This document shows, one piece after another, positions 2,948 through 53,416 of a stretch of DNA of 64,000 nucleotides. The stretch covers positions 4,540-68,539 of the forward strand of contig DASXTB010000409.1 in NCBI GenBank assembly GCA_036505615.1, written 5' to 3'. Each line of letters starts with the position of its first letter. Position 1 is the first letter of the stretch. The notes below the pieces were generated by a model that was given only the letters and a program-made list of their open reading frames with translations, had not been told where the DNA came from and ran no database searches. Origin of the DNA: Acidobacteriota bacterium. GTDB taxonomy: Bacteria > Acidobacteriota > UBA6911 > JACQSX01. A program made the translations under genes and the position numbers.

Positions 2948-3505
2948 TACCTAGTGCCCAGTGGTTGTCAGTGGCACTGCAAGCACCCACAGAGCCGCGA
3001 CCGGAAGGGCGCGGCGCGGCAATCTAAGGTATCCGCACGACCCCATAACCGTGAATATCTTGGCAGCTTGCACGCACCGGATTGGGGAAGCCCGGCTATG
3101 CTGTCGCGCCGCCTCCTTCCGGCCGCGGCTCCGTGGCTGCACGCAATGCCGTGTGGTCGGGGGCGGTCGATTTCCCAAATCTGAATTGCCCTGTTCACAC
3201 CAGCGGTTTGGACTCGCTCGCTAAGCGATTTCTGTCTTCCCGCCAAAATTTTGACCAATTTGTGAACTTTACGTTCATCAAGCGGACCTAGTCTCCGTTT
3301 CTCGAGACCAGTTGCAGGTCGCTGGCCTGGCACTAAGAGTTGACCGGGACCTGGCCACTAGCAACTGGCAACTGAGCACTGCGCACTGCGCTCTAAAATT
3401 TCTTTACATTGCCCGCGTTTTTCGCTAGTTTTCACCTGAATTTAAGAACTGACCCGAAATTGGTAATTAGCAACTGCTAACTAAGCATATTTTTAAATAA
3501 AAATC

Positions 3506-6057: not shown

Positions 6058-6088
6058 AGTATGGAACGAAGTATAGAACATGGATACG

Positions 6089-6245
6089 AGCGGGAGAGTG
6101 GGTGAGCGGGCGAGCGGCTGAGTGGGCGAGTCGGTAATCCCGTGATCCTTCAAACTCTCTATTATACGGTTCTCCAGTGACCGGCTCCCCTACTCCAGCG
6201 CTCTCCACTCCCCCACTCTCCCGCTCACCCACTCATTCCCTCTCC
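6089..6245. repeat. Inverted repeat (GRGAGTGGG-type units) between convergent genes
   Basis: 6089-6138 (gggagagtgggtgagcgggcgagcgg...) is the reverse complement of 6196-6245 (...ctctcccgctcacccactc). Likely a bidirectional terminator hairpin. The same unit family recurs inside a CDS at 58795-58915. Confidence 0.6.
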
Positions 6246-9435: not shown

Positions 9436-9536
9436 AAGTTCCCCTTTCACCGTCACGTTACAGGGTTCGGCTTTCAAGTTTCAAGCCGGAAACCTTTAAC
9501 CTGGATCATTCAAGAACTGAATGAATCGGCCACAGA

Positions 9537-9662
9537 TTACACGGATTTACACGGATAAGATCGGGGTCCGGGGATGGCCCCAACTGCAGTCTGACGGGCG
9601 AGTCATTCATCGCGCCCATCCCCTGACCCCGAACTTATCCGTGTAATCAGCGTAAATCGGTG
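9537..9662. repeat. Nested imperfect palindrome (CACGGAT family)
   Basis: ttacacggataagatcggggtc ... gaccccgaacttatccgtgtaa, with an inner ggggatgg...ccatcccc hairpin. Confidence 0.55.
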
Positions 9663-9778
9663 GCTGGCTCTTTTAATTCATGCATAATCCCGGTCAAGGT
9701 GTACGAACCACCTCAAATGAACTTGAAACTTGGAACTTGAAACCTGTAACTTCATCTACCTGTAACTCCATGTAAAAG

Positions 9779-11343: not shown

Positions 11344-11349
11344 CAATTG

Positions 11350-11505
11350 CGGGTTGTGGATTTCGGATTGCGGAATTAGAGAAATGCGGGTTGTCAGTGG
11401 TCCGTGGTCCGTTGTTTCTTAAGAAACCTCGTTGTTCAACAACTACGAACCACTGACAACGGACAGACTTAAATCCGCAATCCGAAATCCACAATCCGCA
11501 ATAGC
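11350..11505. repeat. Nested palindrome between convergent genes (CGGATTG outer arms, GTCCGTT inner arms)
   Basis: Outer gcgggttgtggatttcggattgcggaatt / aatccgcaatccgaaatccacaatccgcaat. Inner gttgtcagtggtccgtggtccgttg / caactacgaaccactgacaacggac. Probable bidirectional terminator. Confidence 0.6.
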
Positions 11506-12768: not shown

Positions 12769-13707
12769 TTATATCAATTTCAAAATCGCCTCTAATTCCG
12801 GCATTGCCGCAATCTCAAGCAGTTTGCGCGAATAACGCTCCAGTTCCTCTCGACTCTGAAACGGGAAACTGATCTTATATCGATTCTCCTCAAAATAAGC
12901 AGGAGCCGTCAGCTGGATCTGACCGGGAAGGCGAAAGCGCGCCTTGTTGTCTTCAAACTGCCGCTGCACTTCGGTCAGTCGCGGGAAACGGCGGGCGTTT
13001 AGCCAGTCCTGCCAGGCATCATAAACGTGCAAGGGATTTTCCCGCGAGCGAACTCTTTCCAACTCTTTGATCAGTTCCAATTTCTCTATGCTGCAGATGC
13101 GCGTCACTTCTTCCATTAGATCGAGCAGCTCCCGTTGCTTGTTGGCTCCCAGCTTCAGCGAAATGAACCACTCTCCAATCTGATTCTCGTGCGGTGTCCA
13201 GGCGCAGAGGCGATGGGCTGTGTACAGGTAGATTTGTCCGCGAGCCACGCGCAACTGTATTTCTTCGGGCAGTGTTAGAAGTGCGCTCAACTGCTGCACG
13301 ACCAATTGATTGAACTTGATGCCAAGCAGTGGAAACAGGCTCTGCGCCAACTCCTCTCTTGACCAGCCGTTGAGGGTAAATTTCTCAATGCCGCGGGCAC
13401 GCTCCACGTCATTCAGCGGCCCGTGGCTGAGACGCTCCAGAAACCCTAACAACACCGTCTGCTTGCGGTCGTATCCCCGGCACACCATAGCGGGTACCGC
13501 CGTCGCACCGGCTGTCCGGGCGGTCTGAAGGCGCCGAAAACCGCAGACGATCCGGTATTCTTCTCCCTCAGCATGCAGAAACAACGGCTGCACAATCCCA
13601 AATTCTTTCACCCCTTGGATTGGGTGCGGATCCGGATGGAAGGAGACTCGAAAAAGTTCGTCGGGCAGGATCTTCTGAATGGAGACACTCTCAAGATTTT
13701 GGGTCAC
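12769..13707 (-). CDS. ParB/sulfiredoxin-like nuclease-domain protein with a C-terminal helical domain
   Basis: 312 aa. ParB N-terminal domain signature (ILPDEL...FGIVQPLFLHAEGEEYRIVCGFRRLQTARTAG...VPAMV). Confidence 0.5.
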   Translation of the reverse strand: MTQNLESVSIQKILPDELFRVSFHPDPHPIQGVKEFGIVQPLFLHAEGEEYRIVCGFRRLQTARTAGATAVPAMVCRGYDRKQTVLLGFLERLSHGPLNDVERARGIEKFTLNGWSREELAQSLFPLLGIKFNQLVVQQLSALLTLPEEIQLRVARGQIYLYTAHRLCAWTPHENQIGEWFISLKLGANKQRELLDLMEEVTRICSIEKLELIKELERVRSRENPLHVYDAWQDWLNARRFPRLTEVQRQFEDNKARFRLPGQIQLTAPAYFEENRYKISFPFQSREELERYSRKLLEIAAMPELEAILKLI

Positions 13708-13726
13708 AGCGTCGATTATAGCGCAG

Positions 13727-14050
13727 TACCCAGTTCGTAGTTGCCAGTTGCCAGTTACCAGTTCCCAGTGGTCTATCTTAGTGCCGGATCGGCAACTGAT
13801 GTCCAGTGCCCAGTGTTCTAGAGCCCAGCGTCCCGTTACCAGTGGCCAGTGGCCAGTTGCCAGTTCCTGGTTTCATCCTCTGGTTACTGGTGGACGATCC
13901 GGCAATAAGATCAACGACTAGGAACTGCCAACTAGCCACTGGCAGCCCGGCGCTGGGCTCTGGAACGCTGGGTACTGGACATCAGTGGCCAATCCGGCAC
14001 TAAGATGGGCCACTGGGAACTGGTAACTGGCAACTGGCAACTGGACACTG
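13727..14050. repeat. Inverted duplication of a ~105-bp CCAGTKG heptamer-array element in a divergent promoter region
   Basis: 13727-13831 is ~90% identical to the reverse complement of 13945-14050. The 113-bp centre is itself partly symmetrical. Confidence 0.7.
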
Positions 14051-14151
14051 GGTACTGAGGTTTTAAAGTTGAAAAAAAGATCCAGAGACGCCAAGATCGA
14101 ATCTTGAAAATTTTGAGTCGCAAATTAACGGATTCCCCAGTTGTGTAATTA

Positions 14152-16455
14152 ATGGCAAAGACATCTCTTCTCGAAAACCTGAATCAACGTCAGCGCGAGG
14201 CCGTCGAGCACGTACAAGGACCCCTTTTGATCCTGGCTGGCGCCGGCAGCGGCAAAACCCGCACCATTACCTTCCGGATCGCTTACCTGATTGAACAGGG
14301 TTGCTCACAGCCCGAAAACATCCTTGCCGTCACCTTCACCAACAAGGCTGCATCCGAGATGAAGGCGCGGGTGAGGCAGTTGCTCAGCGAACGGAGCGGT
14401 AATCCCCTGGTCTCCACCTTTCACTCGTTCGCCGTAAGGATTCTGCGGCGGTACATCGATCGCCTCGGATACAGGCGCGACTTTACGATTTATGACGCAG
14501 ACGACTCCAAAGCTGCTGTCAAATCAATCCTGAAAGGACAACGGGTCGATGAAACTTTGCTCTCGCACCGTAAGGTCCATTCCATGATCAGTTATGCGAA
14601 GAATCATTCCATCGGCCCCAAGCAATATCTTGAAAAAGCTTCGAACGGCGAGATGGAGATGGTTGGCAACGCCTATGCTGCCTACCAGGAATCACTTAAA
14701 GAATCCAATGCGGTCGATTTTGACGACTTGATTCTGCTTACGTCGCGCCTCTTGCGGGAGCATCCCGATCTGCTCGAGCACTACAATCGCTGGTACCGCT
14801 TCATGATGGTCGACGAATATCAGGATACCAACCACCCTCAGTACGACCTGATCAAGCTGATGACCACCTACCATGACAACATCTGTGTGGTAGGCGACGA
14901 AGACCAGTCGATTTACCGCTTCCGGGGCGCGGATATTCGTAACATCCTGAGCTTTGAGAAAGACTTTCCTGGAACACGGGTGATCAAGCTGGAACAAAAC
15001 TACCGTTCTACCCAGACGATTTTGGACGCCGCCGGCGCTGTCGTCAGCCAAAACGTCCAGCGTAAGGGCAAGGTCCTTTGGACCGAGAATCCCCCCGGGG
15101 AAAAAATCGAGCTGTTTGAGGCGGACGACGCACAGGAGGAAGCAGAATTCGTAACGCGGGAAATCGAGTACCACCTCGATTCCGATCGAGAGACGCGAGT
15201 GGCCGTTTTATACCGCACTAACTTCCAGTCCCGCCAGTTTGAAGAGGCGCTGCGCCGGCGGGGTTTGAGATACAACATTGTGGGAAGCGTGGGTTTTTAC
15301 GCCAGGGCTGAGATCAAAGACCTGATCGCCTATTTGAAAGTACTGCTGAACCCGAACGACGCGATTATGCTCACGCGCATTATCAATGCTCCCGCCCGAG
15401 GTCTCGGGAAGGCGACAATGGATCGGCTGGGTCAGCTCGCCTTCCAGAACCGTATTTCCATATGGGAAGCTCTACAAAAAGCTCTACAGGAAGATCTATT
15501 CAGCGCTCGTACCCTCGCAGCACTAAACCGTTTCAGCAACTTAATTCAACTTCTGCAGTCAAAAATGGCATCCGCCTCTCTGGGAGATTTACTGGAGATG
15601 ATCGCCGCCCAGAGCGGCTACATCGAAGCGCTGCGGAGTGAAAATACGGATGAAGCGCAGAACCGGATCCTAAATATCATGGAATTGATCAATGCTGCTC
15701 GGGAGGCGCAGCGCGGCGGGCAAACAGTGCAGGAATTTCTGGACCACGCGGCGCTGGTTTCAGATACCGACGACCTGGACAGCCAAGCCCGAATCGTCTT
15801 GCTCACTATGCACAACGCCAAAGGCCTGGAATTCCCCATCGTTTTTGTCGCCGGGTGCGAGGAAGGCCTGTTTCCCCACATCCGGTCTAACGAAACCACC
15901 GAGGACCTGGAAGAGGAACGCCGGCTTTGTTACGTGGCAATGACGCGGGCAAAACGGAAGCTGTACGTAACTTACTCTCGCTTGCGGCGCTTTTATGGTG
16001 GAGATATTCCAGGCATGGTACAAGCCTCACGGTTCATTTCCGAAATACCGCCCCAGTTGCTGGAATTGAGGAGTCCGACCCTTGGCTTGAGCGACAGTAT
16101 TCCGTCTGAACGATTTGCTTCACGGGGCATCTTTCCCAAGTCGGGGGTTACCCGGCCTCGCGAGGTCATGTCGCGTTCGGCTCGAAGTTATGGCGGTCCC
16201 ACGCACAATACGCCGGACGCCGTACGAAAGTTCCTCCAGCAGCGCCAGGCGGCCGTCCCCGCCGGCCCTGAGCCGCAGCGGCCGGCACGCGGGTCCACAA
16301 TGAAACCGGGCACCCAAGTGCGGCATGAAAAGTACGGTGTCGGGGTAGTGGTCGATCGGGAACAAGCGGGCGATGATTTCAAGATCACCGTGAGCTTTGC
16401 CGGTTGGGGAACGAAAAAACTAATGGAGCGTTATGCGAAGTTGAAGAAAGTGTGA
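14152..16455 (+). CDS. uvrD: ATP-dependent DNA helicase UvrD/PcrA
   Basis: 767 aa. Walker A (AGAGSGKTRT), VDEYQDTN, and a C-terminal Tudor-like tail (GTQVRHEKYGVGVVV). Confidence 0.9.
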   Translation: MAKTSLLENLNQRQREAVEHVQGPLLILAGAGSGKTRTITFRIAYLIEQGCSQPENILAVTFTNKAASEMKARVRQLLSERSGNPLVSTFHSFAVRILRRYIDRLGYRRDFTIYDADDSKAAVKSILKGQRVDETLLSHRKVHSMISYAKNHSIGPKQYLEKASNGEMEMVGNAYAAYQESLKESNAVDFDDLILLTSRLLREHPDLLEHYNRWYRFMMVDEYQDTNHPQYDLIKLMTTYHDNICVVGDEDQSIYRFRGADIRNILSFEKDFPGTRVIKLEQNYRSTQTILDAAGAVVSQNVQRKGKVLWTENPPGEKIELFEADDAQEEAEFVTREIEYHLDSDRETRVAVLYRTNFQSRQFEEALRRRGLRYNIVGSVGFYARAEIKDLIAYLKVLLNPNDAIMLTRIINAPARGLGKATMDRLGQLAFQNRISIWEALQKALQEDLFSARTLAALNRFSNLIQLLQSKMASASLGDLLEMIAAQSGYIEALRSENTDEAQNRILNIMELINAAREAQRGGQTVQEFLDHAALVSDTDDLDSQARIVLLTMHNAKGLEFPIVFVAGCEEGLFPHIRSNETTEDLEEERRLCYVAMTRAKRKLYVTYSRLRRFYGGDIPGMVQASRFISEIPPQLLELRSPTLGLSDSIPSERFASRGIFPKSGVTRPREVMSRSARSYGGPTHNTPDAVRKFLQQRQAAVPAGPEPQRPARGSTMKPGTQVRHEKYGVGVVVDREQAGDDFKITVSFAGWGTKKLMERYAKLKKV

Positions 16456-19900: not shown

Positions 19901-19929
19901 TCGGCATTGGCCGGATAAAAGCCGATCAC

Positions 19930-20025
19930 GACCACGTTCACGAGCAGGTCCACGCCTACGCGGACGAAAATACACAATCGCTCACGATTCGACTGGTCGT
20001 AGTCGTGGACGTTGACGTGTTAGCG
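19930..20025. repeat. Dispersed ~100-bp CACGNN-hexamer palindromic element, copy 1 (copy 2 inverted at 26397-26513)
   Basis: gtccacgcctacgcggacgaaaatacacaatcgctcacgattcgactggtc here matches the reverse complement of 26440-26490 with 2-3 differences. Confidence 0.7.
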
Positions 20026-20087: not shown

Positions 20088-20377
20088 AAAACCCGAAGGG
20101 TTTACAGAGTAAAGCCGGCGGCAAAGCCCGCGCCTTTTGCGGGCGACGCCGCCGGTTGGCCATCCATCCAAGACGATCCGCCCTGAAAGCGCCTAAGAAT
20201 TTTTCGCAAATTTGAAACCAAGCCCATTTAGTTCTTCGACCCGCTATATCTGTGGCGCTCAGGCTCTGCGACGCCTTCAGCGTCAGATAGTTTATGGAAA
20301 CGGTTAACCGGCGGCGACGCCCCGCAAAAACCGCGGGCTCTGCCGCCGGCTATACTCTCTAAACCCTTCGGGTTTTA
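20088..20377. repeat. Pair of ~75-bp inverted repeats flanking a 140-bp core (MITE-like or structured element)
   Basis: 20088-20160 (aaaacccgaagggtttacagagtaaagccggcggcaaagcccgcgccttttgcgggcgacgccgccggtt) is ~90% identical to the reverse complement of 20301-20377. Each arm contains three short hairpins. Confidence 0.65.
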
Positions 20378-20416: not shown

Positions 20417-21592
20417 TCACCGATAGAAAACTACCCGATCGCCACTCTCGCACTTTCGAAATCGGTCTATCCATTCAACGCACTGCTCCGCGTTGGCCGC
20501 CTGACGCACATCTATATGATTCGTGCCGTCCAGGTTTTGGCGAATAAAAGATTGCAGGACATGCGTTTCCCACCGCTCCTCCAAAGTTAGGTCCGAGAAA
20601 TACACTCTCCCGATGTCAGCAATAAGTTTCTTTCGTTGGTCGCTTCGACCGCTGTACCGAAAATCGCCGCCAAATTTGCCGCCTCGCATGAAAAACAGTC
20701 GCACTGCGTTCTTCTTCTCTGATGGAAGCACCAGAATTAAGTCGGACGCGCGGTAATACTCGGCTTGGCGCTCCCGCACTTCGAGCTGGAAGTTGACTTC
20801 AGGTCGCCACCTTTCGATGGCGCGGGCTTCTTCCAGAAATGCCTCCAATTCGCTGCCCAGAGACTGAAAATCCAATGAGTAGAGCCGCTGATGGATGCGC
20901 TGCAATTTTTCATCCCACAATTCACAAGAAACGAAATAGCTGCGAATGCGCCTGTTCAGGTTCTTACTTTTTCCTACGTAGAAGACCCTTCCCCTCTGGT
21001 CGCTCATCCAGTAAATTCCCGGGGTCTCGGGAATTGCCGCCAGCCATTCGGCCGAGAACCCGAAGCGACTGAAATCAATCTCACTGCGGCCGTCAACCAG
21101 CGTTTGCACTCGCTTCAAACCGCAGTTGTCGTCCAAAAACTGTACCGCATCACCCAGGAGGGCAGCGATTTGGTCCGTATTGGCTGGTTCCCGGAAGGTG
21201 CTACCCAGGCGCGCGGCAACTTCGGCCAGAGTTACTCGCCGCGCTGCTTTGCTGCGATTTGGAAACGCCGCGCGCCACAGTTCCTGAAACTCCCAGGCGC
21301 GGCAGTCCGCATCAGGCAGCCAGCCGGCTAACCGGCTCAGCAGATCGAGTGCAACACGCAGATTGGGCCAGCATATGACGCAAGACTGCAGACAACGATG
21401 AAACTGGACCGGGCCGTCCGACGCGCCGGGCTGCCCGCCAGGAGCGCTGCGCCTATCAGGGTTGGAGACGAGCGAAAATGGAGAGTCATCCCAGTCCTGT
21501 GCGGAAAGACACAAGCCTTCGGGAACCACCAACCGGCATGCAGCATGGCAGACGGTTCCTCCAATCCAGAGTCGCGCCAGCAGTTCTTCCAT
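20417..21592 (-). CDS. GIY-YIG nuclease-domain protein with uncharacterised N- and C-terminal regions
   Basis: Central GIYWMSDQRGRVFYVGKSKNLNRRIRSY (GIY...YVG...R motif). Start taken at the internal MEELLARL (21592) to avoid overlapping the divergent transporter gene. The ORF could extend to 21673. Confidence 0.5.
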   Translation of the reverse strand: MEELLARLWIGGTVCHAACRLVVPEGLCLSAQDWDDSPFSLVSNPDRRSAPGGQPGASDGPVQFHRCLQSCVICWPNLRVALDLLSRLAGWLPDADCRAWEFQELWRAAFPNRSKAARRVTLAEVAARLGSTFREPANTDQIAALLGDAVQFLDDNCGLKRVQTLVDGRSEIDFSRFGFSAEWLAAIPETPGIYWMSDQRGRVFYVGKSKNLNRRIRSYFVSCELWDEKLQRIHQRLYSLDFQSLGSELEAFLEEARAIERWRPEVNFQLEVRERQAEYYRASDLILVLPSEKKNAVRLFFMRGGKFGGDFRYSGRSDQRKKLIADIGRVYFSDLTLEERWETHVLQSFIRQNLDGTNHIDVRQAANAEQCVEWIDRFRKCESGDRVVFYR

Positions 21593-21635
21593 AAATTGCC
21601 GTGTTCCAGGTATTTGTCGGCGCGTGGCCACAACG

Positions 21636-22622
21636 ATGCTAAAATTCGCGGTTTGTTTTATGAAAGAATCCACCGATTACCCTGATTTCTCGAATGAGAC
21701 AACTAATGCAGCTTCCGCGCTCCGGCGTAGGCGGCAACACTGGTTGGCTGACGGATGTTTTCTGCTTATCACATTCATCTGGGGCTTTTCCTTTGTAGTC
21801 GTCAAAAATGCTCTGCGCGAAGTGCCGATGTTCTATTTCAATGCGCTCCGCTTCGGCGTTGCTACTGTGATTCTGATTCCTTTTACATTCAGGCAATGGA
21901 GAGCCTGGAAGCCATCTATTCTTCCTGGATCGATTCTGGCAATGTTTCTTTATGTTGGGTTTGCATTCCAGACGGCGGGACTGAAGTACACCACGCCTTC
22001 TAAGTCAGCCTTCATTACTTCTTCCGCAGCCATCGCAGTCCCCATCTTTCTTTTTCTCTTCTTCAGGAAGAAGTCCGATCTTTCCGCGCTTCTAGGAGTT
22101 CTGGTCGCGTTCGCCGGTCTTTACCTTTTGAGTGTTCCCTCAAACAATTTTAATCTCAACCATGGAGATACTTTGACCGCAATATGCGCCGCGGCCTGGT
22201 CGTTTCATATCATCTTCACGGGCCGTTTTTCTCCGTTTTATCCGTTGGCCGCGCTCGCCACTTTTCAGATTGTCTTGGCCGGAATTGGTTTTTGGCTGAC
22301 GGCGCTCGGCTCGAGTCAAATCGGGCCAGTACCTAGAACCGCCGTGCCGGCAATACTTTACGGTGGCATACTGGCCACCGCTCTCTGCTTCGGGCTGCAG
22401 CTCTGGGCTCAGCGCCACACGTCGCCCACACGCGCCGGCCTGCTGCTGACAACCGAGCCGCTTTTTGCATCTGCCACCTCCTACTTCTGGACGGGAGAAC
22501 GTCTCACCGGTCGCGAGGCCATCGGAGGAGCGCTGATCCTGGTCGCCGTCATTCTGGCCGAAGTTGGATATCAATGGCGCTTCCAGCATGGACGCTTCGC
22601 CGGCCAGGCAATCGATCTATGA
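21636..22622 (+). CDS. EamA/DMT-family transporter
   Basis: About 10 TM helices with duplicated EamA-like halves. The start could be 21636 or 21660. Confidence 0.7.
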   Translation: MLKFAVCFMKESTDYPDFSNETTNAASALRRRRQHWLADGCFLLITFIWGFSFVVVKNALREVPMFYFNALRFGVATVILIPFTFRQWRAWKPSILPGSILAMFLYVGFAFQTAGLKYTTPSKSAFITSSAAIAVPIFLFLFFRKKSDLSALLGVLVAFAGLYLLSVPSNNFNLNHGDTLTAICAAAWSFHIIFTGRFSPFYPLAALATFQIVLAGIGFWLTALGSSQIGPVPRTAVPAILYGGILATALCFGLQLWAQRHTSPTRAGLLLTTEPLFASATSYFWTGERLTGREAIGGALILVAVILAEVGYQWRFQHGRFAGQAIDL

Positions 22623-26284: not shown

Positions 26285-26396
26285 AGCGTGTAGCAGAGAA
26301 ATTTGTAGCAATTAAATAGGAGGCGGATTACACAGAAACAACTACTATTTGGTGAAATCTTGTGCTCTCGGCAAAATTTGGCGCTGAACAGCCGAC

Positions 26397-26513
26397 CACG
26401 TTCACGTTCACGAGCACGTCAACGTCCACGACTACGACCAATCGAATCGTGAGCGATTGTGTATTTTTCGTCCGCGTAGGCGTGGACGTGTTCGTGAACG
26501 TGAACGTGGTCGT
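26397..26513. repeat. CACGNN-hexamer palindromic element, copy 2 (inverted relative to 19930-20025)
   Basis: cgaccacgttcacgttcacgagcacgtcaacgtccacgactacgacc ... ggcgtggacgtgttcgtgaacgtgaacgtggtcg. The core matches copy 1. Confidence 0.7.
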
Positions 26514-26635
26514 TATCGGCTTTTATTGGTTTGCTGCTTTACCGCGCTAGGTCCCTTGGTGGTGAAGCTTTTTTCAGGCGACAAAGGACACGAAGGATAC
26601 AAAGGCGCACCAAGGGTCCGCCCCGGTTGCGAGCC

Positions 26636-32131: not shown

Positions 32132-33229
32132 CTACAGCTCTAAGTTATTTTCATTCCAATAAATGATCCGATATCCGGTCGAAGAAGCGTGGTCCACCGA
32201 AAAGGTGCAACGTATCACGGAAATGATCTTTCGCCCGTTCAGTTGGCCCACCGATCGCAGTGAAAACACAAGGGATGGCTGCGCGCTTAAAAATCCCAAG
32301 GCGTTCATATCCGCCTGTCCCACCACCTCCCCGACGTCCGTGGGGCTGGAAAAAGGCTTGGTGGCGCGACGGCTGATGATTGCCTGAGCCTTCTGGCGAT
32401 CCATCCCCGGTATAGATGCAAGAACCTCGAGTGGGGCCGAATTTATGTTAATGCGATTGAAAGAGCTGTAAGTCGTCAGAAAATTGACCAAGCCGCCCCG
32501 CGTCAGCTCCGCCCCGGATTCATCCTTGAACTTCTGGCCGTAAAAAATCTCCGGCGTGATGCCCTTTACCAGCAACAGCTCCTCGGTATTGTCCAGAGGA
32601 CCGTCCTTGCAGTGATAAGGCTCCGGCAGCGACATGTAGTAGCTGTCCTCGGCGCCGTTTAGATGAACGTCCTGGTCCTGATCGATCCAGTCGATCAGGC
32701 TGTCGACAATTCCATCTCCCACGTCTTGAGACAAGCCGATTTCCCTCATCAGCTTCCTTAACATCAGGTCACTGGCAAAATTGACGTTGATTTTTCCTGT
32801 TTCGTCCGTGACGGTGATTTCCGCCGATCCGTTGGCCATTTCGAAATGGAGCTGCCCTCGTGCCAGATCTTCTTCCTCGGCCTGCTGGGTGGCCGGGTCG
32901 CCGGTAGTGGGACGAAGGGCGCGCAGCAACGCACGGTTGATGCCGTAATAGATTCCCGAGCGGGCAATGTAATAAGACTGCTTTAGGTCCACCTCGTTGA
33001 CGGTGGCCTTCACTTCCATGCGCACCGAGCGGCTGAAAGAGAGCGCAATTAGCGACAGTGCCACCAGCACCCACGACAGGAGCACCATCAGAGAACCGCG
33101 CTCGTCGCGCGGCCGGCCCAATGAATACCTGTTTCGCCCAATTGATCTTTTTTCTGCCCACACGCCTGCTGCGGCAAATCTTTCGCGTGGCGGTATTTGT
33201 GCCCCTTTGAACTCTTCGCGTGGACTCAT
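32132..33229 (-). CDS. GspK-like minor pseudopilin
   Basis: The TGKINVNFA / ININSAPLEVL region is typical of GspK. Start chosen at 33229 (ATGA overlap with the gspJ-like stop). An alternative start at 33088 sits directly on the TM helix. Confidence 0.6.
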   Translation of the reverse strand: MSPREEFKGAQIPPRERFAAAGVWAEKRSIGRNRYSLGRPRDERGSLMVLLSWVLVALSLIALSFSRSVRMEVKATVNEVDLKQSYYIARSGIYYGINRALLRALRPTTGDPATQQAEEEDLARGQLHFEMANGSAEITVTDETGKINVNFASDLMLRKLMREIGLSQDVGDGIVDSLIDWIDQDQDVHLNGAEDSYYMSLPEPYHCKDGPLDNTEELLLVKGITPEIFYGQKFKDESGAELTRGGLVNFLTTYSSFNRININSAPLEVLASIPGMDRQKAQAIISRRATKPFSSPTDVGEVVGQADMNALGFLSAQPSLVFSLRSVGQLNGRKIISVIRCTFSVDHASSTGYRIIYWNENNLEL

Positions 33230-34002
33230 GGCGTCACCTGGCTTCCGATGATCCCCCGAAGCTGCGGAGGCAATGCGGGTGCACCACCCGCGATCGCCCG
33301 AGAATCGGCGTTGATGATGCCTACGATTCTCAATTTTTGCTGGTTCTTTTTGACCAGGGTGATACGAATCGCCAACGGCAGCCTTCCGATTGTCTCGGCG
33401 TCCCAGGGACCATCCCATGAGTAATCGCCCTGCCCTCTGTCGCCGAAATACTCAAATTTCCCGTTCTCCAGGCCCGAAAAAAATACCGTGGATTTCTGCG
33501 CGCCGGCGCCCATGTTCAAATAAGTCTGCCCGCCTCGGTACTGGCTCTCTGCTTCAAGAAAATCCAGGCTCCCCTGCGTTCCCGGAGCCAGAGAATAAGA
33601 GATCATCGACATGCCGGCGTTCTTCTTGAAGAACAGCGGAGCAAAGCTGGCAAAGAGCACATGCTGGTCGTCGCCTTTAAACAGCGGCGGAATCTGCTGC
33701 CGCATCGCAACCAGTCGCTCAAAGAATCCCTGGGGATTCAGTTCCGGCTGTTCGCCCTGCCGCTGCGCGCGGATTGGCTCGTAGAATTTCCCTTTCGGCC
33801 GAACCGGGAATGAAGATCCAATCTGCGTCTTGACCAGCTCGATGATTACTTTCTCGCGCTGGGAGCTTTCTATCCGCTCGTTCCCTTTTCTGTAGGCATT
33901 CAGAGAGACTCGCAGCGCCAGAAACACGATCACAGACAGAACCGACACCAGCGTCAGCGTGATCAGCAATTCAAGCAGTGTAAAACCTCGTTGGCCTCTC
34001 AT
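33226..34002 (-). CDS. GspJ-like pseudopilin
   Basis: Prepilin N-terminus MRGQRGFTLLELLITLTLVSVL. Start at 34002 overlaps the stop of the upstream gene (ATGA). Confidence 0.55.
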   Translation of the reverse strand: MRGQRGFTLLELLITLTLVSVLSVIVFLALRVSLNAYRKGNERIESSQREKVIIELVKTQIGSSFPVRPKGKFYEPIRAQRQGEQPELNPQGFFERLVAMRQQIPPLFKGDDQHVLFASFAPLFFKKNAGMSMISYSLAPGTQGSLDFLEAESQYRGGQTYLNMGAGAQKSTVFFSGLENGKFEYFGDRGQGDYSWDGPWDAETIGRLPLAIRITLVKKNQQKLRIVGIINADSRAIAGGAPALPPQLRGIIGSQVTP

Positions 34003-34772
34003 TGGAAATTCCTGAACGGGTTGTTGGGCTGAGCTATGGGCGGGCGAGGCGCGTTGGGGGGCGCGCTGAAAGCACCGGGAGTGTTCAAGGCCGGCTGCTC
34101 GCGCAAGCCCACCGGTTTCAGGCAAACCAGGCGATACAGCTTTCCATTTTTGTCATTCTTGTAGATCACATCCACACGGACGCTCAACAGTTTCATGGGA
34201 AATTGGGTGCGTCCGTCCCATCGGGCTTGTTCTGGAATCTCAAAGTCTTGAACCATCGCCTCCCACCGGAAATTGTCGTCCAGATCATCGTGTCTAGTTA
34301 TCGGGCCCTTGATGGTCTCATCGGAGAGAATTTCATTCATGACGTTCTCCGCGTAATTCATCGCCTGGCCGGCCAGGTCCATCTTGCGCACATTCTTCAG
34401 CGCTCCTGAAAAGAGTTGCAGAGCTACAGTGATGCCTATGCTGACGATCGCCAGCGCCACGACCACTTCCAGTAAGCTGAAACCCCTCCTGGAATGCCGA
34501 ATGCCGAGTGCGGAATGCGGAATGCTTTCTGAATGCGGAATGTCTTTTGAACGCGGAAGGCGAAATGCGGAATGCGGAATGCTCCTTGAATGCGGAATGG
34601 GGATTGCGGAATGCGGAATGTCTCCTGATTGGGGAACGTCCAACGCGGAACAGAGAGTGAAAGACGGCAGCCGATTAACAGTTTGAAATCCCCATTCCGC
34701 ACTCTGCATTCCGCATTCCGCATTCGATACCCCGCATTCCGCATTCGAAATTCCGCATTCGAAATTCCGCAT
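33999..34772 (-). CDS. GspI-like pseudopilin; 5' end undefined because the ORF runs into a GCGGAAT repeat array
   Basis: Prepilin motif SRRGFSLLEVVVALAIVSIGITVAL at ORF residues 95-120. No ATG/GTG lies near the motif; the nearest in-frame candidates are ATT (34502) or TTG. The upstream 90 codons are translated repeat. Confidence 0.5.
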   Translation of the reverse strand: MRNFECGISNAECGVSNAECGMQSAEWGFQTVNRLPSFTLCSALDVPQSGDIPHSAIPIPHSRSIPHSAFRLPRSKDIPHSESIPHSALGIRHSRRGFSLLEVVVALAIVSIGITVALQLFSGALKNVRKMDLAGQAMNYAENVMNEILSDETIKGPITRHDDLDDNFRWEAMVQDFEIPEQARWDGRTQFPMKLLSVRVDVIYKNDKNGKLYRLVCLKPVGLREQPALNTPGAFSAPPNAPRPPIAQPNNPFRNFQ

Positions 34773-34800
34773 TACCCACGCTCCTTCGGGATGGTCAACT
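34490..34800. repeat. GCGGAATGC heptamer/nonamer arrays in inverted orientation within the pseudopilin operon
   Basis: (gcggaatgc)n at 34490-34640 and (gcattccgc)n at 34690-34790. Confidence 0.7.
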
Positions 34801-35428
34801 TAGCCGATCCGGTAATCACGTCGGTTTTCACAATCACCTTCCGGCCGCGGTCGTTTTCCAATACCAACTCCGCATCATCGGCTCGGCCGTTCGGGTAAAA
34901 GCTGATGTAGACGGCCGGATCCCGACTTTCCTCTCCTTCAAACTTTACGGAACTCACTTTGATCTCGTCGCTAAGCCCAAAGTCGTGGACCTTGTCGTGA
35001 TAGGCGTCCGCCAGAAAGATGATGTTGCGGTCCCTTTGGACTGCGATCCGATAAACCCGCTGCTCCCCGACGGCCAAAGTCCGGGCGGTGCGGCACAATG
35101 TAACGAAGTCTCGCCCTTTGGCCTCCAGTCTCATGCCCGCAAGGCCCGTGCGCATCGACGGCATCACAACCGCCATGGCGACGGCTATTATCACCAACAC
35201 GATCACGACCTCGATGAGGGTGAAACCTCTTCGGGATTGCGGAATGCGGAATGCGGAATGGCTCAATTGCGGAATGCGGATTGCGGACTGCGGATTACTC
35301 GATTTCGGATTTCGGATTGCGGATTGCGAATTGCGGATAGTACGTTCCAATCTGTCAATCCGCAATCCGCAATCCGCAATCCGAAATTGGATAACCTGAT
35401 GCTCCAAAATACAGCCATCAAAGTGCAC
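34772..35428 (-). CDS. GspH-like pseudopilin; 5' end undefined (repeat array upstream)
   Basis: Prepilin motif QSRRGFTLIEVVIVLVIIAVAMAVV. No nearby ATG; a TTG at 35266 would give a 14-aa leader. Confidence 0.5.
   Translation of the reverse strand: MHFDGCILEHQVIQFRIADCGLRIDRLERTIRNSQSAIRNPKSSNPQSAIRIPQLSHSAFRIPQSRRGFTLIEVVIVLVIIAVAMAVVMPSMRTGLAGMRLEAKGRDFVTLCRTARTLAVGEQRVYRIAVQRDRNIIFLADAYHDKVHDFGLSDEIKVSSVKFEGEESRDPAVYISFYPNGRADDAELVLENDRGRKVIVKTDVITGSAKLTIPKERG
35235..35400. repeat. CGGAATG/CGGATTG arrays with an inverted CAATCCG partner
   Basis: cgggattgcggaatgcggaatgcggaatgg...gcggattgcggattgcgaattgcgg / caatccgcaatccgcaatccgcaatccg. Confidence 0.65.
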
Positions 35429-35865
35429 TAGTTACTCTCCCACGAAGTGATGTCGGCATTTTGGCCTTGGCCACCCTCTTGGCCGTCTGGGCCAAAAGAG
35501 TAAAGATCGAACTCACCGTGCTGGCCGGGGCAGCGATAGATGAATTCACGCTTCCAGGCATCTTTGGGCACGAAGTTCTTCTGCAGGTATGGACCATTCC
35601 AGTTGGCGATGTTTCCCGGATTTACTAACAAGGCGTGCAGCCCCTCTTCTGTTGCCGGATAACGACCCACATCAACCTTGAATGAGTCCAGCGCCGTCTC
35701 CAACAAGCTGATCTGCCTCTTGGTAATCGTTATTCGGGCCTTTATCAGGTGATCCATGATTGCTGGAGTCACCAGCCCGGCCAGCAGACCCAAAATGACA
35801 AGAACTACAATCAGTTCGATCAGAGAAAACCCTCTCTGCCTTTCTTCACTTCTGTCCGTTGCCAT
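35428..35865 (-). CDS. gspG: Major pseudopilin GspG
   Basis: MATDRSEERQRGFSLIELIVVLVILGLLAGLV. GspG hallmark C-terminus (YSFGPDGQEGGQGQNADITSW). Confidence 0.8.
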   Translation of the reverse strand: MATDRSEERQRGFSLIELIVVLVILGLLAGLVTPAIMDHLIKARITITKRQISLLETALDSFKVDVGRYPATEEGLHALLVNPGNIANWNGPYLQKNFVPKDAWKREFIYRCPGQHGEFDLYSFGPDGQEGGQGQNADITSWESN

Positions 35866-35958
35866 AAGACCTCCGATCCGTATGGATCCCGCTGGGACTA
35901 ATTCCGCATTCCGCAATCCGCATTCCGCATTTGAGCGAATCCGCATTCCGCAATCGCA

Positions 35959-36399
35959 TCACCGCTTGTCCACCCACGAGGTAATATCCGCGTTTTCGCC
36001 GTCTCCTCCCTCCTGGCCGTCGGCGCCCAGCGAATAGAGGTCGTATTCACCGTGCTGCCCGGGAGCGCGATAGACGTAGTCATGACCCCAGGGGTCTTTC
36101 GGTACCGCGTTCTTCTTCAAGTAGGGCCCGCTCCAATTGGCGATATTTCCCGAGTTTTGAATCAGCGATTCCAGCCCCTCCTGGGTTGTGGGATAACGGC
36201 CCACATCGAAGTTGAACAAATCCAGCGACTCCTCAAACTGCGAGATCTGGACCTTGGCTATCTGCGCGCGGCTGCCTTTCAACTTGGACATCACCTTGGG
36301 ACCTACCACCGCGGCCAGCAGGCCTAAAATGACCAGTACCACGATCAGTTCGATAAGCGAAAATCCTTCATCTTTCCGTTTGCGTTCGACCTTGAACAT
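35959..36399 (-). CDS. gspG: Major pseudopilin GspG, second paralog
   Basis: MFKVERKRKDEGFSLIELIVVLVILGLLAAVV ... YSLGADGQEGGDGENADITSW. Confidence 0.8.
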   Translation of the reverse strand: MFKVERKRKDEGFSLIELIVVLVILGLLAAVVGPKVMSKLKGSRAQIAKVQISQFEESLDLFNFDVGRYPTTQEGLESLIQNSGNIANWSGPYLKKNAVPKDPWGHDYVYRAPGQHGEYDLYSLGADGQEGGDGENADITSWVDKR

Positions 36400-41600: not shown

Positions 41601-41821
41601 CCGGTCTCCCCAACAGACTTTACGATGCGATTTCGCAAAGAAAGTCTAAAGTTTCAATTGGTTACGCCTCTGTGGCGATTAATCCAAAGAGATCAATTAC
41701 TTACGCTATTATCGCAAAGAGTGGCCGGGATTGGAAGCTGCATCCGCCTCGGCGGGCCGGGCGGCAACCTAAAGCTCAGGGACACGGGAACAGGGAGACA
41801 CGGGGACCTCGGACGGCTGGC

Positions 41822-42012
41822 GCCTCCGCCGGGCTTGTCCCGGCGGAGCGCAAGATTCTCGCAACTTGCGGCGAACGGGAACATTACTACCCGCAAAAGG
41901 TAGTGAACAATCTTGGCTCCACCGGCACAAGGCCGGTGGAGGCCATGAGTGTTTGATCGATCCGGCTCTAGTAAAAAATCTTTGCTCCGCCGGGACAAGC
42001 CCGGCGGAGCCG
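41822..42012. repeat. Cluster of GC-rich hairpins with a conserved ACAAG/CTTGT pentaloop
   Basis: ccgccgggCTTGTcccggcgg (41826-41846), ccaccggcACAAGgccggtgg (~41918-41938) and ccgccgggACAAGcccggcgg (41988-42008). The first and third are exact reverse complements. Confidence 0.6.
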
Positions 42013-42119
42013 ATTTGGTTGCTTATGGATTTGGGCATCATGCGAATGGCCAGCCGGGATTCATCAGGGCTGACCAAAACTTCACCGATTTGTGAGATGA
42101 GGACGAGGCGTTTTGAGCT

Positions 42120-42752
42120 TCACTGGCCACTTTTCTTTTTGGGGGTTGTTTGGCGACTCCTTAGCTGCGGTTTTAGAAACTTTTCATAACACTCCGGACA
42201 GATGCCGTGGCTGAACTCTGCATCCGAGTGTTTTGTAATGTAGTTTTCCACCTGATCCCAGTAGTTTTCATCATTCCTTATTTTCTTGCAGTAGGAACAC
42301 ATGGGTAAAAGGCCGCGAAGCTGTTTTACGTGGGATAGAGCCGCTTCCAGTTCCGTCACGCGCTCGGCCAGCTTGTTCTGCAGATCAGTCACGCGCGCTC
42401 CTACTTGAAGACGCGCTTCCAGTTCCGCCGGGTCAAAGGGCTTAGTAATGTAGTCGTCTGCTCCCGCCTGAAGGCCTTCTACAACATGCTCCCGTCCTTT
42501 TACGGTGAGAAGAATAATGTAGATGACCTTCAGCCCGGTAGCGTTGCGGACTCTTCTGCAGACCTCGACACCATCCATTCCCGGCATCATCCAGTCCAGG
42601 ATGGCAAGCGATGGAGCATTTGTGTCTTGCAGCACCCGCCAGGCCTCCAAACCGTCGCCCGCAGTCACCACCTCATACCCTTTTGAGGCCAGCGTAGCTT
42701 CCAGGAGACGTCGCGATACGGGTTCATCGTCGGCTACTAAAACCTTCATCAC
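42120..42752 (-). CDS. Response regulator with a C-terminal CxxC...CxxC putative zinc-ribbon domain
   Basis: Receiver (VLVADDEP ... LDWMMPGMDG ... YITKPF). C-terminal PMCSYCKKIRNDENYWDQVENYITKHSDAEFSHGICPECYEK. Confidence 0.8.
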   Translation of the reverse strand: MMKVLVADDEPVSRRLLEATLASKGYEVVTAGDGLEAWRVLQDTNAPSLAILDWMMPGMDGVEVCRRVRNATGLKVIYIILLTVKGREHVVEGLQAGADDYITKPFDPAELEARLQVGARVTDLQNKLAERVTELEAALSHVKQLRGLLPMCSYCKKIRNDENYWDQVENYITKHSDAEFSHGICPECYEKFLKPQLRSRQTTPKKKSGQ

Positions 42753-51574: not shown

Positions 51575-52039
51575 ATGTCGCCGACTGGCAAGAGACAACG
51601 CCAGACCCTGATTCGCAGGATTATCGCTGAAGAGGAAATCTTCAGCCAGGAAGAATTGCGAAATGAACTGCTGAAGCGCTCGGTGAATGTTACGCAGGCC
51701 ACTCTTTCCCGCGACATCGCCGAGCTGGGCCTGGTAAAACAGTCCTCCACGGGAACCTACACGCTTCCTGAAAACGTGACTGAACATACAGAGGCTCACG
51801 CCATTTTGGCCCGCATGCGCCAACTGGTTCAGGAGATCGATTTCTCAGGCAACCTGGTGCTGGTCAAGACCGCGCCAGGCGACGCGCAAGCAGCGGGACT
51901 TGCCATGGACCACCTTCAATTCAAGGAAGTGGTGGGAACCATCGCCGGCGACGATACCCTGCTCGTGGTGATACGGGCAAAATACAAAGCATCGGGCTTT
52001 GCCAGAAAACTGGAGAAAATGCTGGCAGGAGAAGGCTAG
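51575..52039 (+). CDS. argR: Arginine repressor ArgR
   Basis: 154 aa. N-terminal winged helix (FSQEELRNELLKRSVNVTQATLSRDIAELGLVK). C-terminal GTIAGDDTLLVV. No SD; a TAGAAT -10-like hexamer lies 9 nt upstream, so the transcript may be leaderless. Confidence 0.85.
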   Translation: MSPTGKRQRQTLIRRIIAEEEIFSQEELRNELLKRSVNVTQATLSRDIAELGLVKQSSTGTYTLPENVTEHTEAHAILARMRQLVQEIDFSGNLVLVKTAPGDAQAAGLAMDHLQFKEVVGTIAGDDTLLVVIRAKYKASGFARKLEKMLAGEG

Positions 52040-52450
52040 GAGGCAGGAAGCAGGAGGCAGGAAGCAAACGGCAGGAAGCAGGAAGCAGGAAGCAGGAGGC
52101 AGGAGCCAGGAGGCAGGAGGCAGGAGGCAGACGGCAGAAGGCGGAGGCAGAAAGCGGAAGGCCGAAGGCGGAAAGCGGAAGGCAGTAGACAGAAAGCGGA
52201 AGGCGGAAAGTGGAATGCAGCAGGCGATGGCTTACAAGGCGTCATCTGTCATTCGTCATTTGTTACCCACAACGACAGACGACGATTTGATACGTGAACT
52301 GTCTTCTGCCTTCCGCTTTCTGCCTGCTGCTTTCTGCCTGCTGCTTTCTGCCTTCTGCTTTCTGCCTCCTGCTTTCTGCCTTCCGCCTTCCGCTTTCTGC
52401 CTACAGCCTTCCGCTTTCTGCCTACAGCCTTCCGCTTTCCGCCTTCCGCC
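52031..52450. repeat. GCAGGAA heptamer array (52031-52230) and inverted TTCCTGC array (52300-52450) between argR and argF
   Basis: ggaggcaggaagcaggaggcaggaagc... versus ...ctgccttccgctttctgcctgctgctttctgcc. Confidence 0.75.
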
Positions 52451-53416
52451 TTAAACGAACTCCCGGTGCAGCGCTTTCAGCAGCAGGGCCTTGTGCACGT
52501 GCAGGCGGTTTTCGGCCTGGTCGTAGACGATGGAGCGCGGTCCATCGATAACTGAATCAGAGACTTCTTCACCCCGGTGCGCGGGAAGGCAGTGCATGAA
52601 GAACGCCTTCTTGCCGGCGCGGGTCATCAGTTGTGGAGTCACCTTGTATTGTGCAAAGTCCCGCAACTTCCTTTCTGCATCCCTCTCCTGGCCCATACTG
52701 ACCCAGGTGTCTGTGTAAACGGCATCCGCTCCAAAAAGATGGCCCAGATCGTGGCTGAATTCCACGATGCTGCCGCTCTCCCCGGCAAATTGTGCCGCGC
52801 GCCGGCAGCAGAGTGCGTCCGCCTCATAACCGGGAGGCGAGATCAGAGTGAAGTGCATTCCCAGCAGAGCGCAAATCTGCATCAGCGAGTTACTGACGTT
52901 GTTGGGGTCTCCCACGTAAACCAGCTTGCGATGCTTCACCTCACCCCAGCGCTGCTGCAACGTCAGGACGTCGGCCAGCACCTGGCAGGGATGTTCAAAA
53001 TCGCTGAGCGCATTAATCACCGGGATGGATGAATTTCGAGCCAATTCCTCCAGCGTCGATTGGGAGAATGTTCGAGCAATCACAATGGAGCACCAGCGCT
53101 CCAGATTCCTTCCTGTGTCCTTGATCGATTCCCGTTCACCAATCTTCTGCTGCTGGCAATCCAGAAAACTGGCCGTACCTCCCATGCTGTGCATTCCAAT
53201 TTCAAAAGTGAGACGGGTGCGGAGAGAAGGCTTTTCAAACAGCAACACGGCGTGACAGCCGGAGAGCGAATTCTGATGCGTCTCGGGCGCATTCTTCACC
53301 AGACACGCCAGTTGCAGCAGGTCGTGGATGCGTTCCACGCTGAGATCGGAGATCGCAAGCAGATGTTTCGGCCAGTCCCCCGCTGGATTCGTCTTAGGCT
53401 TCTTCAAGTTCTTCAT
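52451..53416 (-). CDS. argF: Ornithine carbamoyltransferase
   Basis: FEKPSLRTRLTFE (STRTR-type carbamoyl-phosphate site), HCLPAHRGEE. Start taken at MKNLKK (the ORF extends to 53524). Confidence 0.85.
   Translation of the reverse strand: MKNLKKPKTNPAGDWPKHLLAISDLSVERIHDLLQLACLVKNAPETHQNSLSGCHAVLLFEKPSLRTRLTFEIGMHSMGGTASFLDCQQQKIGERESIKDTGRNLERWCSIVIARTFSQSTLEELARNSSIPVINALSDFEHPCQVLADVLTLQQRWGEVKHRKLVYVGDPNNVSNSLMQICALLGMHFTLISPPGYEADALCCRRAAQFAGESGSIVEFSHDLGHLFGADAVYTDTWVSMGQERDAERKLRDFAQYKVTPQLMTRAGKKAFFMHCLPAHRGEEVSDSVIDGPRSIVYDQAENRLHVHKALLLKALHREFV

Follow-up and report, generated by a model that had tools for sequence, protein, structure and literature searches.

The window analysed here is a 64-kb stretch of a contig from an uncultured Acidobacteriota bacterium (DASXTB010000409.1, assembly GCA_036505615.1), and all positions without a locus label refer to it. 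Two divergently transcribed genes of the window, one encoding a ParB-like protein and the other the helicase UvrD, are separated by an intergenic gap of 444 nt, and a long palindrome (13724-14057) is located in this gap between their start codons. Their outer neighbours are a gene resembling spore photoproduct lyase (SPL) on the ParB-like side and a gene for an amino-acid permease on the uvrD side. The palindrome was recovered as a 334-bp inverted repeat with arms of 141 nt, which are 85% complementary and enclose a spacer of 52 nt, and no longer inverted repeat was found in the window. In addition, it is the largest member of a lineage-specific population of palindromes with repeat-built arms, which occupies more than half of the intergenic gaps. 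The coordinates of its parts and of the neighboring features are given in Table 1.

Table 1 Features of the ParB-like/uvrD gap and its flanking genes in window coordinates
Feature	Position	Strand	Description or basis
ParB-family gene	12769..13707	-	ParB_N and helix-turn-helix (HTH) region similar to Spo0J/Noc; Pfam, PDB sequence search
Perfect TATAAT	13715..13720	-	7 nt upstream of the GTG of the ParB-like gene (13705-13707), 3 nt outside the left arm
Outer layer, left	13724..13818		Heptamer array, core copy 1 and short array; 89.5% complementary to 13963-14057
Left arm of compound palindrome	13724..13864		141 nt; inverted-repeat search
CCAGTNN heptamer array, left outer	13730..13771	+	Tandem Repeats Finder (TRF), period 7, 4.4 copies, 91% matches
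Core copy 1	13772..13802	+	TCTATCTTAGTGCCGGATCGGCAACTGATGT; mini-hairpin AGTGCCG-GAT-CGGCAACT
Inner hairpin	13819..13962		Array 13825-13866, loop with core copy 2, array 13917-13962; arms 76% complementary
CCAGTNN heptamer array, left inner	13825..13866	+	TRF
Central spacer	13865..13916		Contains core copy 2; mostly paired in the predicted fold, apical loop of ~8 nt
Core copy 2	13886..13916	-	ATCTTATTGCCGGAT, 1 mismatch; in central spacer
Right arm of compound palindrome	13917..14057		141 nt; inverted-repeat search
Outer layer, right	13963..14057		Short array, core copy 3 and heptamer array
Core copy 3	13979..14009	-	ATCTTAGTGCCGGAT exact; mirror of copy 1
CCAGTNN heptamer array, right outer	14008..14053	-	NNACTGG on the plus strand; TRF, period 7, 5.3 copies
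Conserved uvrD-proximal block	14058..14151	+	94 nt, outside the palindrome; conservation
UvrD/PcrA helicase gene	14152..16455	+	Pfam, homologues

Over the 141 positions of the arms, 120 Watson-Crick pairs were counted together with 13 transition mismatches and 8 transversions. In the first-pass annotation, which was made from the sequence without database searches, the region had been described as an inverted duplication with ~90% identity over ~105 bp. This description was borne out, as 88.6% complementarity was obtained over 105 nt once the register had been corrected; the proposed left arm (13727-13831) was right, whereas the right arm (13945-14050) was off by 4-5 nt and its true partner is 13950-14054. 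On careful alignment the identity stayed well above 70%, both over these 105 nt and over the full arms. The region had also been suggested to be capable of forming a cruciform, and in agreement with this a long hairpin was predicted in both orientations, with z of about -21. The RNA of the plus strand folded into one long hairpin with -272.4 kcal/mol (z -21.4), the RNA of the minus strand gave -253.1 kcal/mol (z -21.2) and single-stranded DNA gave -146.6 kcal/mol (z -21.8), and the folding energy of the palindrome was reached by none of 100 shuffled sequences. The inverted repeat is real and far beyond chance, and from the modelled folds it should be physically capable of forming a cruciform or a hairpin. 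Mismatches compatible with G-U pairing numbered 8 on the plus strand and 5 on the minus strand, which gives no informative strand preference of the fold.

The arms are composed of CCAGTTG/CCAGTGG heptamers, as had been noticed at first sight: CCAGT occurs 11 times in the left half and ACTGG 9 times in the right half, and neither was found in the opposite half. The CCAGT copies of the left half are mostly spaced by 7 nt, and arrays with period 7 were detected by TRF at 13739-13769, 13835-13865 and 14008-14044. When the two-unit pattern CCAGTKGCCAGTKG was searched with at most 2 mismatches, 20 matches were obtained in the window compared with 1.5 expected, and 16 of them lie inside the palindrome. 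The outer arms are not pure heptamer arrays, each being broken by a non-repeat core of ~31 nt with ATCTTAGTGCCGGAT, and a third copy of this core is located in the central spacer. The 15-mer ATCTTAGTGCCGGAT was found on the plus strand at 13775 and on the minus strand at 13992 and, with one mismatch, 13897; the rest of the window contains no copy of it. Internal direct repeats were also found (13890-13962 matches 13985-14057, and 13717-13765 matches 13819-13867), as was a second inverted register in which 13724-13796 pairs with 13890-13962. Because of these direct repeats and the second register, the element is regarded as being built of repeated units, each consisting of a heptamer array and a core. 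Two nested hairpin layers can be distinguished in this way, and judged from their pairing (89.5% for the outer layer and 76% for the inner hairpin) the outer one appears to be the younger. Small open reading frames (ORFs) inside the palindrome, such as 13679-13921 on the plus strand (80 aa), were set aside, the underlying DNA being repetitive and not conserved in relatives.

For the other intergenic gaps of the window, a census was made on a gene map that we built from ORFs and Pfam domains, in which gaps of at least 50 nt were considered and a fold was counted when z was -4 or lower on at least one strand. Strongly folding palindromes were found in 18 of the 33 gaps, the ParB/uvrD gap being the strongest, and they occupied 5 of the 6 convergent gaps, 2 of the 5 divergent gaps and 11 of the 22 co-directional gaps, including gaps within the type II secretion pseudopilin operon. 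Most of these palindromes consist of tandem units of 6-10 nt from at least eight sequence families, and the palindromes are often nested. The 7-nt units include ATTGCGG/AATGCGG, GTCCGTT, GTCGAAA/GTCGCAG, CATCGGT and AGGCAGG, and the other families include GAGTGGGC-type octamers, CACGGGGAA and ACACGGATGA (9-10 nt) and CCACGT (6 nt). Period-7 arrays found by TRF are spread across the window, very often with a reverse-complement array close by, and their density is 27.5 bp/kb, compared with a median of 0 over 84 comparison loci and with 3.8-6.8 bp/kb in the syntenic relatives. Nesting, in which an outer array pair surrounds a different inner pair, was observed at 9472-9749, 11346-11502 and 52030-52452 and also at the corresponding gap of one relative (L088, see below). 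Repeat families that are common to the window and its relatives occupy non-orthologous loci. No transposase gene was found among the window ORFs by Pfam, and no gene for a REP-associated tyrosine transposase (RAYT; REP, repetitive extragenic palindromic sequence) is present in the 64 kb.

Members of this population gain or lose units and, in at least one case, have dispersed. The AGGCAGG/CTGCCTT palindrome at 52030-52452 was compared with that of a near-identical strain (L089, 3426-3826), and over 400 nt the two are identical except for exactly one 7-nt unit. This palindrome holds the largest array pair, with arms of ~200 nt and ~150 nt around an inner GTCATNT hairpin, and the contig from the Joint Genome Institute (JGI) ends within the right arm. 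The CCACGT palindrome at 26390-26530 is ~140 nt long and has arms of CCACGT/CACGTT hexamers and a unique core, GACTACGACCAATCGAATCGTGAGCGATTGTGTATTTTTCGTCCGC. A truncated second copy lies on the opposite strand at 19915-20019 (90% identical over 112 nt), and a third copy is nested centrally in the ParB/uvrD palindrome of L088 (L088 499-640, 89.5% identical over 143 nt). All three copies share a sharp end, ...ATCGGCTTTTAT, and a target-site duplication was found in none of them. They are the clearest evidence that members of this class disperse or move. For the ParB/uvrD palindrome itself, a search of the window gave no near-identical copy, and the only other match was at 3329-3401, which resembles the right end of the palindrome including part of the core (GGCACTAAGA) with 75-79% identity over ~70 nt. 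This match is the right end of a second element of the CCAGT family (2951-3391), which consists of short CCAGTG arrays (2951-2990 and 3351-3391) around ~360 nt. A GC-rich palindrome at about 2985-3140 (CACAGAGCCGCGACCGGAAGG...CCTTCCGGCCGCGGCTCCGTG) lies inside this second element (region 2948-3505); a 35-nt match of its part 2985-3020 to the relative L082 was too short for interpretation.

A few further structures of the window were recorded on the way. An inverted repeat of 56 nt with 91% complementarity and without tandem units (20088-20143 and 20321-20376) encloses 177 nt just downstream of a gene with a GIY-YIG domain (20417-21673, minus strand), and it could be a different element resembling a miniature inverted-repeat transposable element (MITE). 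In a gap of 519 nt (41601-42119), three copies of a GC-rich 28-nt palindrome, GCTCCGCCGGGACAAGCCCGGCGGAGC, were found at 41821-41849, 41916-41943 and 41984-42012; they look REP-like and have no tandem units. In 10 of the 12 palindromes with clear G/C skew, G is enriched in the 5' arm whichever strand is read, which is the same polarity as the 'convergent' polarity reported for Xanthomonas; the families are non-independent and the statistics are weak, and the ParB/uvrD palindrome is unskewed.

The gene order SPL, ParB-like, divergent UvrD and permease is conserved in relatives, and the same gap could therefore be compared across them (percentages in brackets are identities to the window for the named flanking gene). 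The same palindrome, 99% identical over 501 nt, is present in a JGI contig (L085, ParB-like 99%). In a contig from an older JGI project (L088, ParB-like 88%), the outer CCAGTNN arms are found with the same two boundaries and a different palindrome is nested centrally, and the single TCCGGGCTAAGA motif of this contig is positionally equivalent to core copy 3. A Logan contig (L087, ParB-like 79%) carries a shorter CCAGTNN palindrome of ~230 nt; its centre is homologous to the centre of the inner hairpin (CTGGTTACTGGT...ACTAGCCACTGG), and ~21-23 nt of core copy 1 (13777-13797) are missing at the matching place. Unrelated repeats of the GGACAGACCCC/GAATT type occupy the gap in a contig from the European Nucleotide Archive (L086, ParB-like 89%) and in L090 (ParB-like 64%). 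In L082 (UvrD 73%) there is only a 22-bp hairpin built of octamers, and in L081 (UvrD 74%), as also in L092 and L093, a single array of four ATTGCGG units is present and the hairpin is absent. Compared with 444 nt in the window, the gap measures about 150-165 nt in L081 and L082. In the gap of L090 (780-1440), a ~22-nt unit, GAATTGGGGACAGACCCCTTC, is repeated at least eight times in tandem; inverted copies come next, and then an array of ~12 units (GCCAACCT-type, 7-8 nt). The 22-nt unit is related to the palindrome of L086, and the ParB/uvrD gap appears to be a hotspot of successive repeat families. The earlier idea of an insertion held in so far as extra, lineage-specific DNA is present compared with the relatives with UvrD at 73-74%. 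Several close relatives have unrelated DNA in place of the region or lack it, as the first-pass annotation had described for the sequence part of one refuting outcome, and a conserved sequence-specific regulatory element is thus disfavoured.

Between the window and L085, 20 differences were found over 7,405 nt, of which 11 fall within 92 nt (13889-13980) in the right inner half of the palindrome and none in its left half. No compensatory changes were seen between these two sequences: the 11 differences mostly break pairs or leave pairing unchanged, and there is no covariation signal. Among the GTDB representatives searched, the best matches were only 48-53% identical, so that the source genome is not in that collection, and exact look-ups of the UvrD and the aldehyde dehydrogenase of the window gave no match either. 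No match of the palindrome to phages was found. Eight plasmid matches (H1-H8) were obtained, which are ~50-nt heptamer arrays of the AACTGG type on large plasmids of Pantoea ananatis (e.g. NC_016817.1 2145-2194) with 86% identity to the right arm. The Pantoea arrays lie near the plasmid start and are probably convergent simple-sequence repeats and not homologues.

The two edges of the gap are conserved. On the ParB side the conserved edge is GCTATAATC, and its TATAAT is kept in 7 of 7 relatives (L081, L082, L085-L088 and L090), in each of which 7 nt separate it from the GTG or ATG start codon, a distance too short for a Shine-Dalgarno sequence. This arrangement suggests that the box is the -10 element and that the ParB-like mRNA is leaderless or nearly so. 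On the other side, the uvrD-proximal block contains TTGAAA (14069-14074), which begins 11 nt past the right arm, a constant spacer of 17 nt and CAAGAT (14092-14097); it is 86-88% conserved in L084 and L088 and still recognisable in L090, in spite of the ParB-like value of 64%, and in L081. Because both edges are conserved, we infer that they carry the promoters, and the block would comprise the promoter and the 5' untranslated region of uvrD. The first-pass annotation had stated that the region fills all promoter space of both genes, which does not agree with these positions, as TATAAT and TTGAAA-N17-CAAGAT are both conserved and both outside the arms. Of the ParB-like promoter, the palindrome covers the -35 zone alone, and this zone is not conserved.

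Several candidate functions of the gap were searched and rejected. A promoter inside the element was represented by one weak match (TGGACA-16-TAAAGT, 14042-14069, with its -35 in the last heptamer), which is not conserved in L088, L084 or L087. No terminator-like site, defined as a G+C-rich hairpin with a T tract, was found in 13400-14400, and the flanking genes start here and do not end, so a rho-independent terminator was dismissed. A parS or KorB-type ParB operator was rejected as well: no parS-like 16-bp palindrome with at most 3 mismatches is present in the gap, the sole weak match in the window (at 42322) being at chance level, and relatives that have retained the ParB-like gene show a different gap content. 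The Rfam 15 scan of the whole window gave no match at the gathering score; a match to the mir-449 hairpin (24 bits against a gathering score of 60, E = 0.008) was taken as spurious.

Taken together, the palindrome is most probably, in our judgement with somewhat better than even confidence, a non-coding and fast-evolving compound palindrome of two nested hairpin layers that has grown locally and serves as a structural or neutral spacer. A CCAGTNN palindrome would have resided in the gap since before the split from the relatives with ParB-like at 79-88% (L087 and L088), and its original arrival may have occurred through a dispersal like that of the CCACGT element. Afterwards it would have been altered locally as slippage added or removed repeat units. 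In this strain, a unit of array plus core may then have been copied into the opposite arm, giving the well-matched outer layer. Template switching across a hairpin, a mechanism known from quasi-palindrome correction, would account for such copying. Because both genes are transcribed away from it and the conserved promoter parts lie outside, the palindrome probably acts as a spacer that is not transcribed. Its sole direct contact with expression would be through the -35 zone of the ParB-like promoter, which is not conserved. As far as can be read from the sequence, the palindrome serves neither gene as promoter and should not form part of either mRNA. Since its sequence is not under conservation, any effect should be structural; a structural or neutral function is most likely. 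There is no sign of a sequence-specific regulatory role, and the palindrome is regarded as an ordinary, though the largest, member of the repeat population rather than as a device dedicated to regulation. Between the two conserved edges, the sequence seems free to change.

Some points weigh against this reading. The analysed part of the genome is the 64-kb window, to which the copy counts refer, and the population size depends on our own gene map with the gap and fold thresholds given above. A strongly folding palindrome of some sequence was found in the gap of 6 of the 7 kinds of relatives examined, and this persistent hairpin could reflect selection on structure rather than a mutational hotspot. 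The clustering of differences in 13889-13980 may be real hypervariability at a local mutation hotspot or assembly noise. A metagenome scan for the core ATCTTAKTGCCGGATYGNCMAC returned no match, yet it missed L085, which carries the exact pattern, and is therefore a weak negative. The proposed growth mechanism is read only from the identities of the arms, and the direct evidence of mobility comes from the CCACGT element and not from the ParB/uvrD palindrome.

A wider proposal can be made, which we put forward as speculative and consider unlikely as a whole. According to it, an uncharacterised process of this Acidobacteriota lineage would fill its intergenic DNA with self-nesting hairpins whose arms are simple-sequence repeats. 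New hairpins would arise or insert at the tip of existing ones, with no target-site duplication, grow outward by slippage and cross-hairpin copying and move between loci; they may act as generic transcript-end or insulator structures, and the ParB/uvrD gap would be a hotspot of at least three successive families.

It is rather improbable that the palindrome is a selected structural element, namely a bidirectional transcription block or insulator, or a cruciform acting as supercoiling sink between the divergent promoters, with selection on the hairpin and not on its sequence. The hairpin is extremely stable on both strands, and a strong hairpin is found in the gap of the window, L085, L087, L088, L086, L082 and L090 despite replacement of the sequence. 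Palindromes in 5 of 6 convergent gaps would also be expected of terminators, and the sister CCACGT palindrome ends with CTTTTAT like an intrinsic terminator. However, the flanking genes are transcribed away from the gap, in which no known transcript has to be stopped, and the region 13400-14400 contains no hairpin with a T tract. L081, L092 and L093 retain the genes without the hairpin, the class occurs in every gene-orientation context including the inside of operons, and the G-U-compatible mismatches are unbiased by strand (8 vs 5).

Insertion as a unit was given the same low probability, in the form of a non-autonomous mobile element (MITE or REPIN type, the latter being a pair of REPs) mobilised in trans by an enzyme encoded elsewhere. 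Such an insertion would fit the extra DNA compared with the relatives at 73-74%, the sister palindrome with a sharp common end at three loci of two genomes, the second CCAGT-family element, whose ~70-nt homology extends into part of the core, and the non-orthologous positions of repeat families in relatives. In addition, the occupancy of the gap does not track relatedness, as L086 (89%) shares its repeat family with L090 (64%). On the other hand, L087 and L088 have orthologous CCAGTNN arrays that share the two boundaries, which indicates long residence and change in place. A near-identical second copy was not found in the window, nor was a transposase or RAYT gene in the 64 kb, phage matches were absent and the plasmid matches are only 50-nt array look-alikes. 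Target-site duplication is absent: the flanks are TATAGCG and AGGTTTT (...TTATAGCG / element / AGGTTTTAAAG) and contain no direct repeat.

That the heptamers form an operator array, for example for autoregulation by the ParB-family protein or for an SOS-type regulator of uvrD, is very unlikely. The adjacent gene does encode a ParB-family protein with an HTH region, and for tandem heptamers a role as regulator sites has been suggested in Geobacter (PMC2700814) and one in modulating the recF and recO promoters in Nostoc (bioRxiv 10.1101/2022.06.06.494920). Yet no parS-like site is present in the gap, L086, L090, L082 and L081 carry unrelated repeats instead of the arrays with the genes and conserved flanks still in place, and 17 further gaps show the same architecture built of other heptamers. 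An assembly artefact, i.e. a fold-back chimera in a metagenome-assembled contig, can practically be dismissed: short-read contigs of relatives do tend to break at palindromes (L084, L086 and L089) and the differences between the two near-identical-strain assemblies cluster inside the palindrome, but the arms are imperfect (85%), unlike those of fold-back chimeras, the full structure was independently assembled in the JGI contig L085, and homologous structures were recovered from Logan (L087) and from another JGI project (L088).

For annotation, it would be wrong to label the palindrome between the ParB-like gene and uvrD as a promoter, as a regulatory RNA or as a MITE. Arrays of the same class distort ORF calls elsewhere in the window, as in the upstream extensions of pseudopilin genes and the repeat-encoded tail of argG. 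In 33226-36399, heptamer palindromes lie between consecutive pseudopilin genes and the mechanical ORFs extend upstream through them; the N-terminal methylation motif of the pseudopilins is thereby placed at residues 36-93, and gene callers are likely to mis-start these genes. The argG ORF (argininosuccinate synthase, 54827-56176, minus strand) continues for ~55 codons (54827-54994) past the end of its Pfam domain, through a stop-free CTGCCTT array (54868-54965), which is either a repeat-encoded C-terminal tail or a mis-extended ORF. Similarly, an octamer array (58797-58906, GGGAGAGT type, of the same family as the 6087-6235 palindrome) is located inside a 1737-aa ORF with NHL repeats (56255-61468, minus strand). 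A period of 8 is odd within a reading frame, and this ORF may be two genes fused via the stop-free array.

The repeat population is a more interesting object than the palindrome alone. Among the long simple-sequence repeats of bacteria, heptamer arrays show the strongest over-representation, and to our knowledge their origin and function are still unexplained. This genome provides an unusually dense natural data set for them, in which units slip between strains, close relatives differ by replacement and one member has demonstrably dispersed. It would allow one to study the origin of such structures, the tolerance of long palindromes and the possible use of these structures in place of canonical terminators.

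Bacterial MITEs such as Correia/NEMIS, ERIC, RUP and Nezha have terminal inverted repeats matching insertion sequences, target-site duplications and many similar copies. The palindrome resembles them in being extra intergenic DNA with inverted ends that can fold as RNA, can supply or disturb promoter parts and is present or absent between relatives; terminal inverted repeats of this kind, target-site duplications and many copies were not found for it in the window. The MITE-like insertion considered in the first-pass annotation is therefore retained in part: the DNA is extra and lineage-specific and belongs to a class with a dispersed member, whereas a classical MITE was rejected on the missing target-site duplication and on the lack, within the window, of both a near-identical copy and a transposase. 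REPINs are ~70-110 nt long, consist of two REPs of ~25 nt with one conserved sequence, occur in hundreds of copies and have a cognate RAYT (Bertels & Rainey 2011, PMC3116915). Like REPs and REPINs, the elements described here are intergenic, hairpin-forming and non-coding, lack target-site duplications, are partly dispersed in the genome and evolve within it. They differ in that their arms are simple-sequence repeat arrays of many families and that no RAYT gene was seen in the window; for the ParB/uvrD palindrome, with arms of 141 nt made of heptamer arrays and core and without a short conserved REP unit (~20-40 nt), this assignment was rejected.

Closer parallels are found among tandem heptamers. 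In Geobacter metallireducens, paired tandem-heptanucleotide 'global regulator sites' of 3-5 units with a few fixed consensus classes were interpreted as binding sites (PMC2700814). They share with our arrays the tandem 7-9-nt units, the pairing on opposite strands at variable distance and the intergenic location, but they are short with a fixed consensus, while the arrays here are long, heterogeneous, nested and not conserved. Intergenic heptamer arrays have been described as short tandemly repeated repetitive (STRR) sequences in the cyanobacteria Calothrix and Nostoc and as TAACTGA repeats in Beggiatoaceae (PMC4679880), and those of Nostoc were proposed to modulate the promoters of the repair genes recF and recO (bioRxiv 10.1101/2022.06.06.494920). 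Dense intergenic heptamers of several families with nested small elements, for which regulatory roles were proposed but are unproven, are common to these systems and the present one. Small dispersed repeats nesting inside heptamer arrays were reportedly also noted by Elhai and colleagues in 2008. The cyanobacterial and Beggiatoaceae arrays are mostly single and direct and have no sequence relationship to those of the window, and only few inverted pairs exist in Nostoc (Rehm et al., PMC4692102).

The closest described phenomenon is the inverted pairs of heptamer arrays in Xanthomonas. There, 70-75 opposite-strand pairs of GGGAATC arrays per genome were reported, which are capable of forming stem-loops or cruciforms and occur in all orientation contexts; closely related species differ in array length and sequence but agree in the type, be it a single array or an inverted pair, and the function of the arrays is unexplained (Rehm et al. 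2015, PMC4692102). Tandem 7-nt intergenic units, inverted arrays lying close together and turnover with the pair type kept (L085, L087 and L088) are shared with our case. Xanthomonas uses essentially one G-rich, quadruplex-forming unit, whereas at least eight families coexist here within 64 kb and CCAGTTG/CCAGTGG has no G-runs. Compared with the known cases, the new aspects of the present population are thus its occurrence in the phylum Acidobacteriota, its many coexisting unit families, far longer arms (141 nt), systematic nesting, non-repeat cores and the dispersal of at least one of its palindromes.

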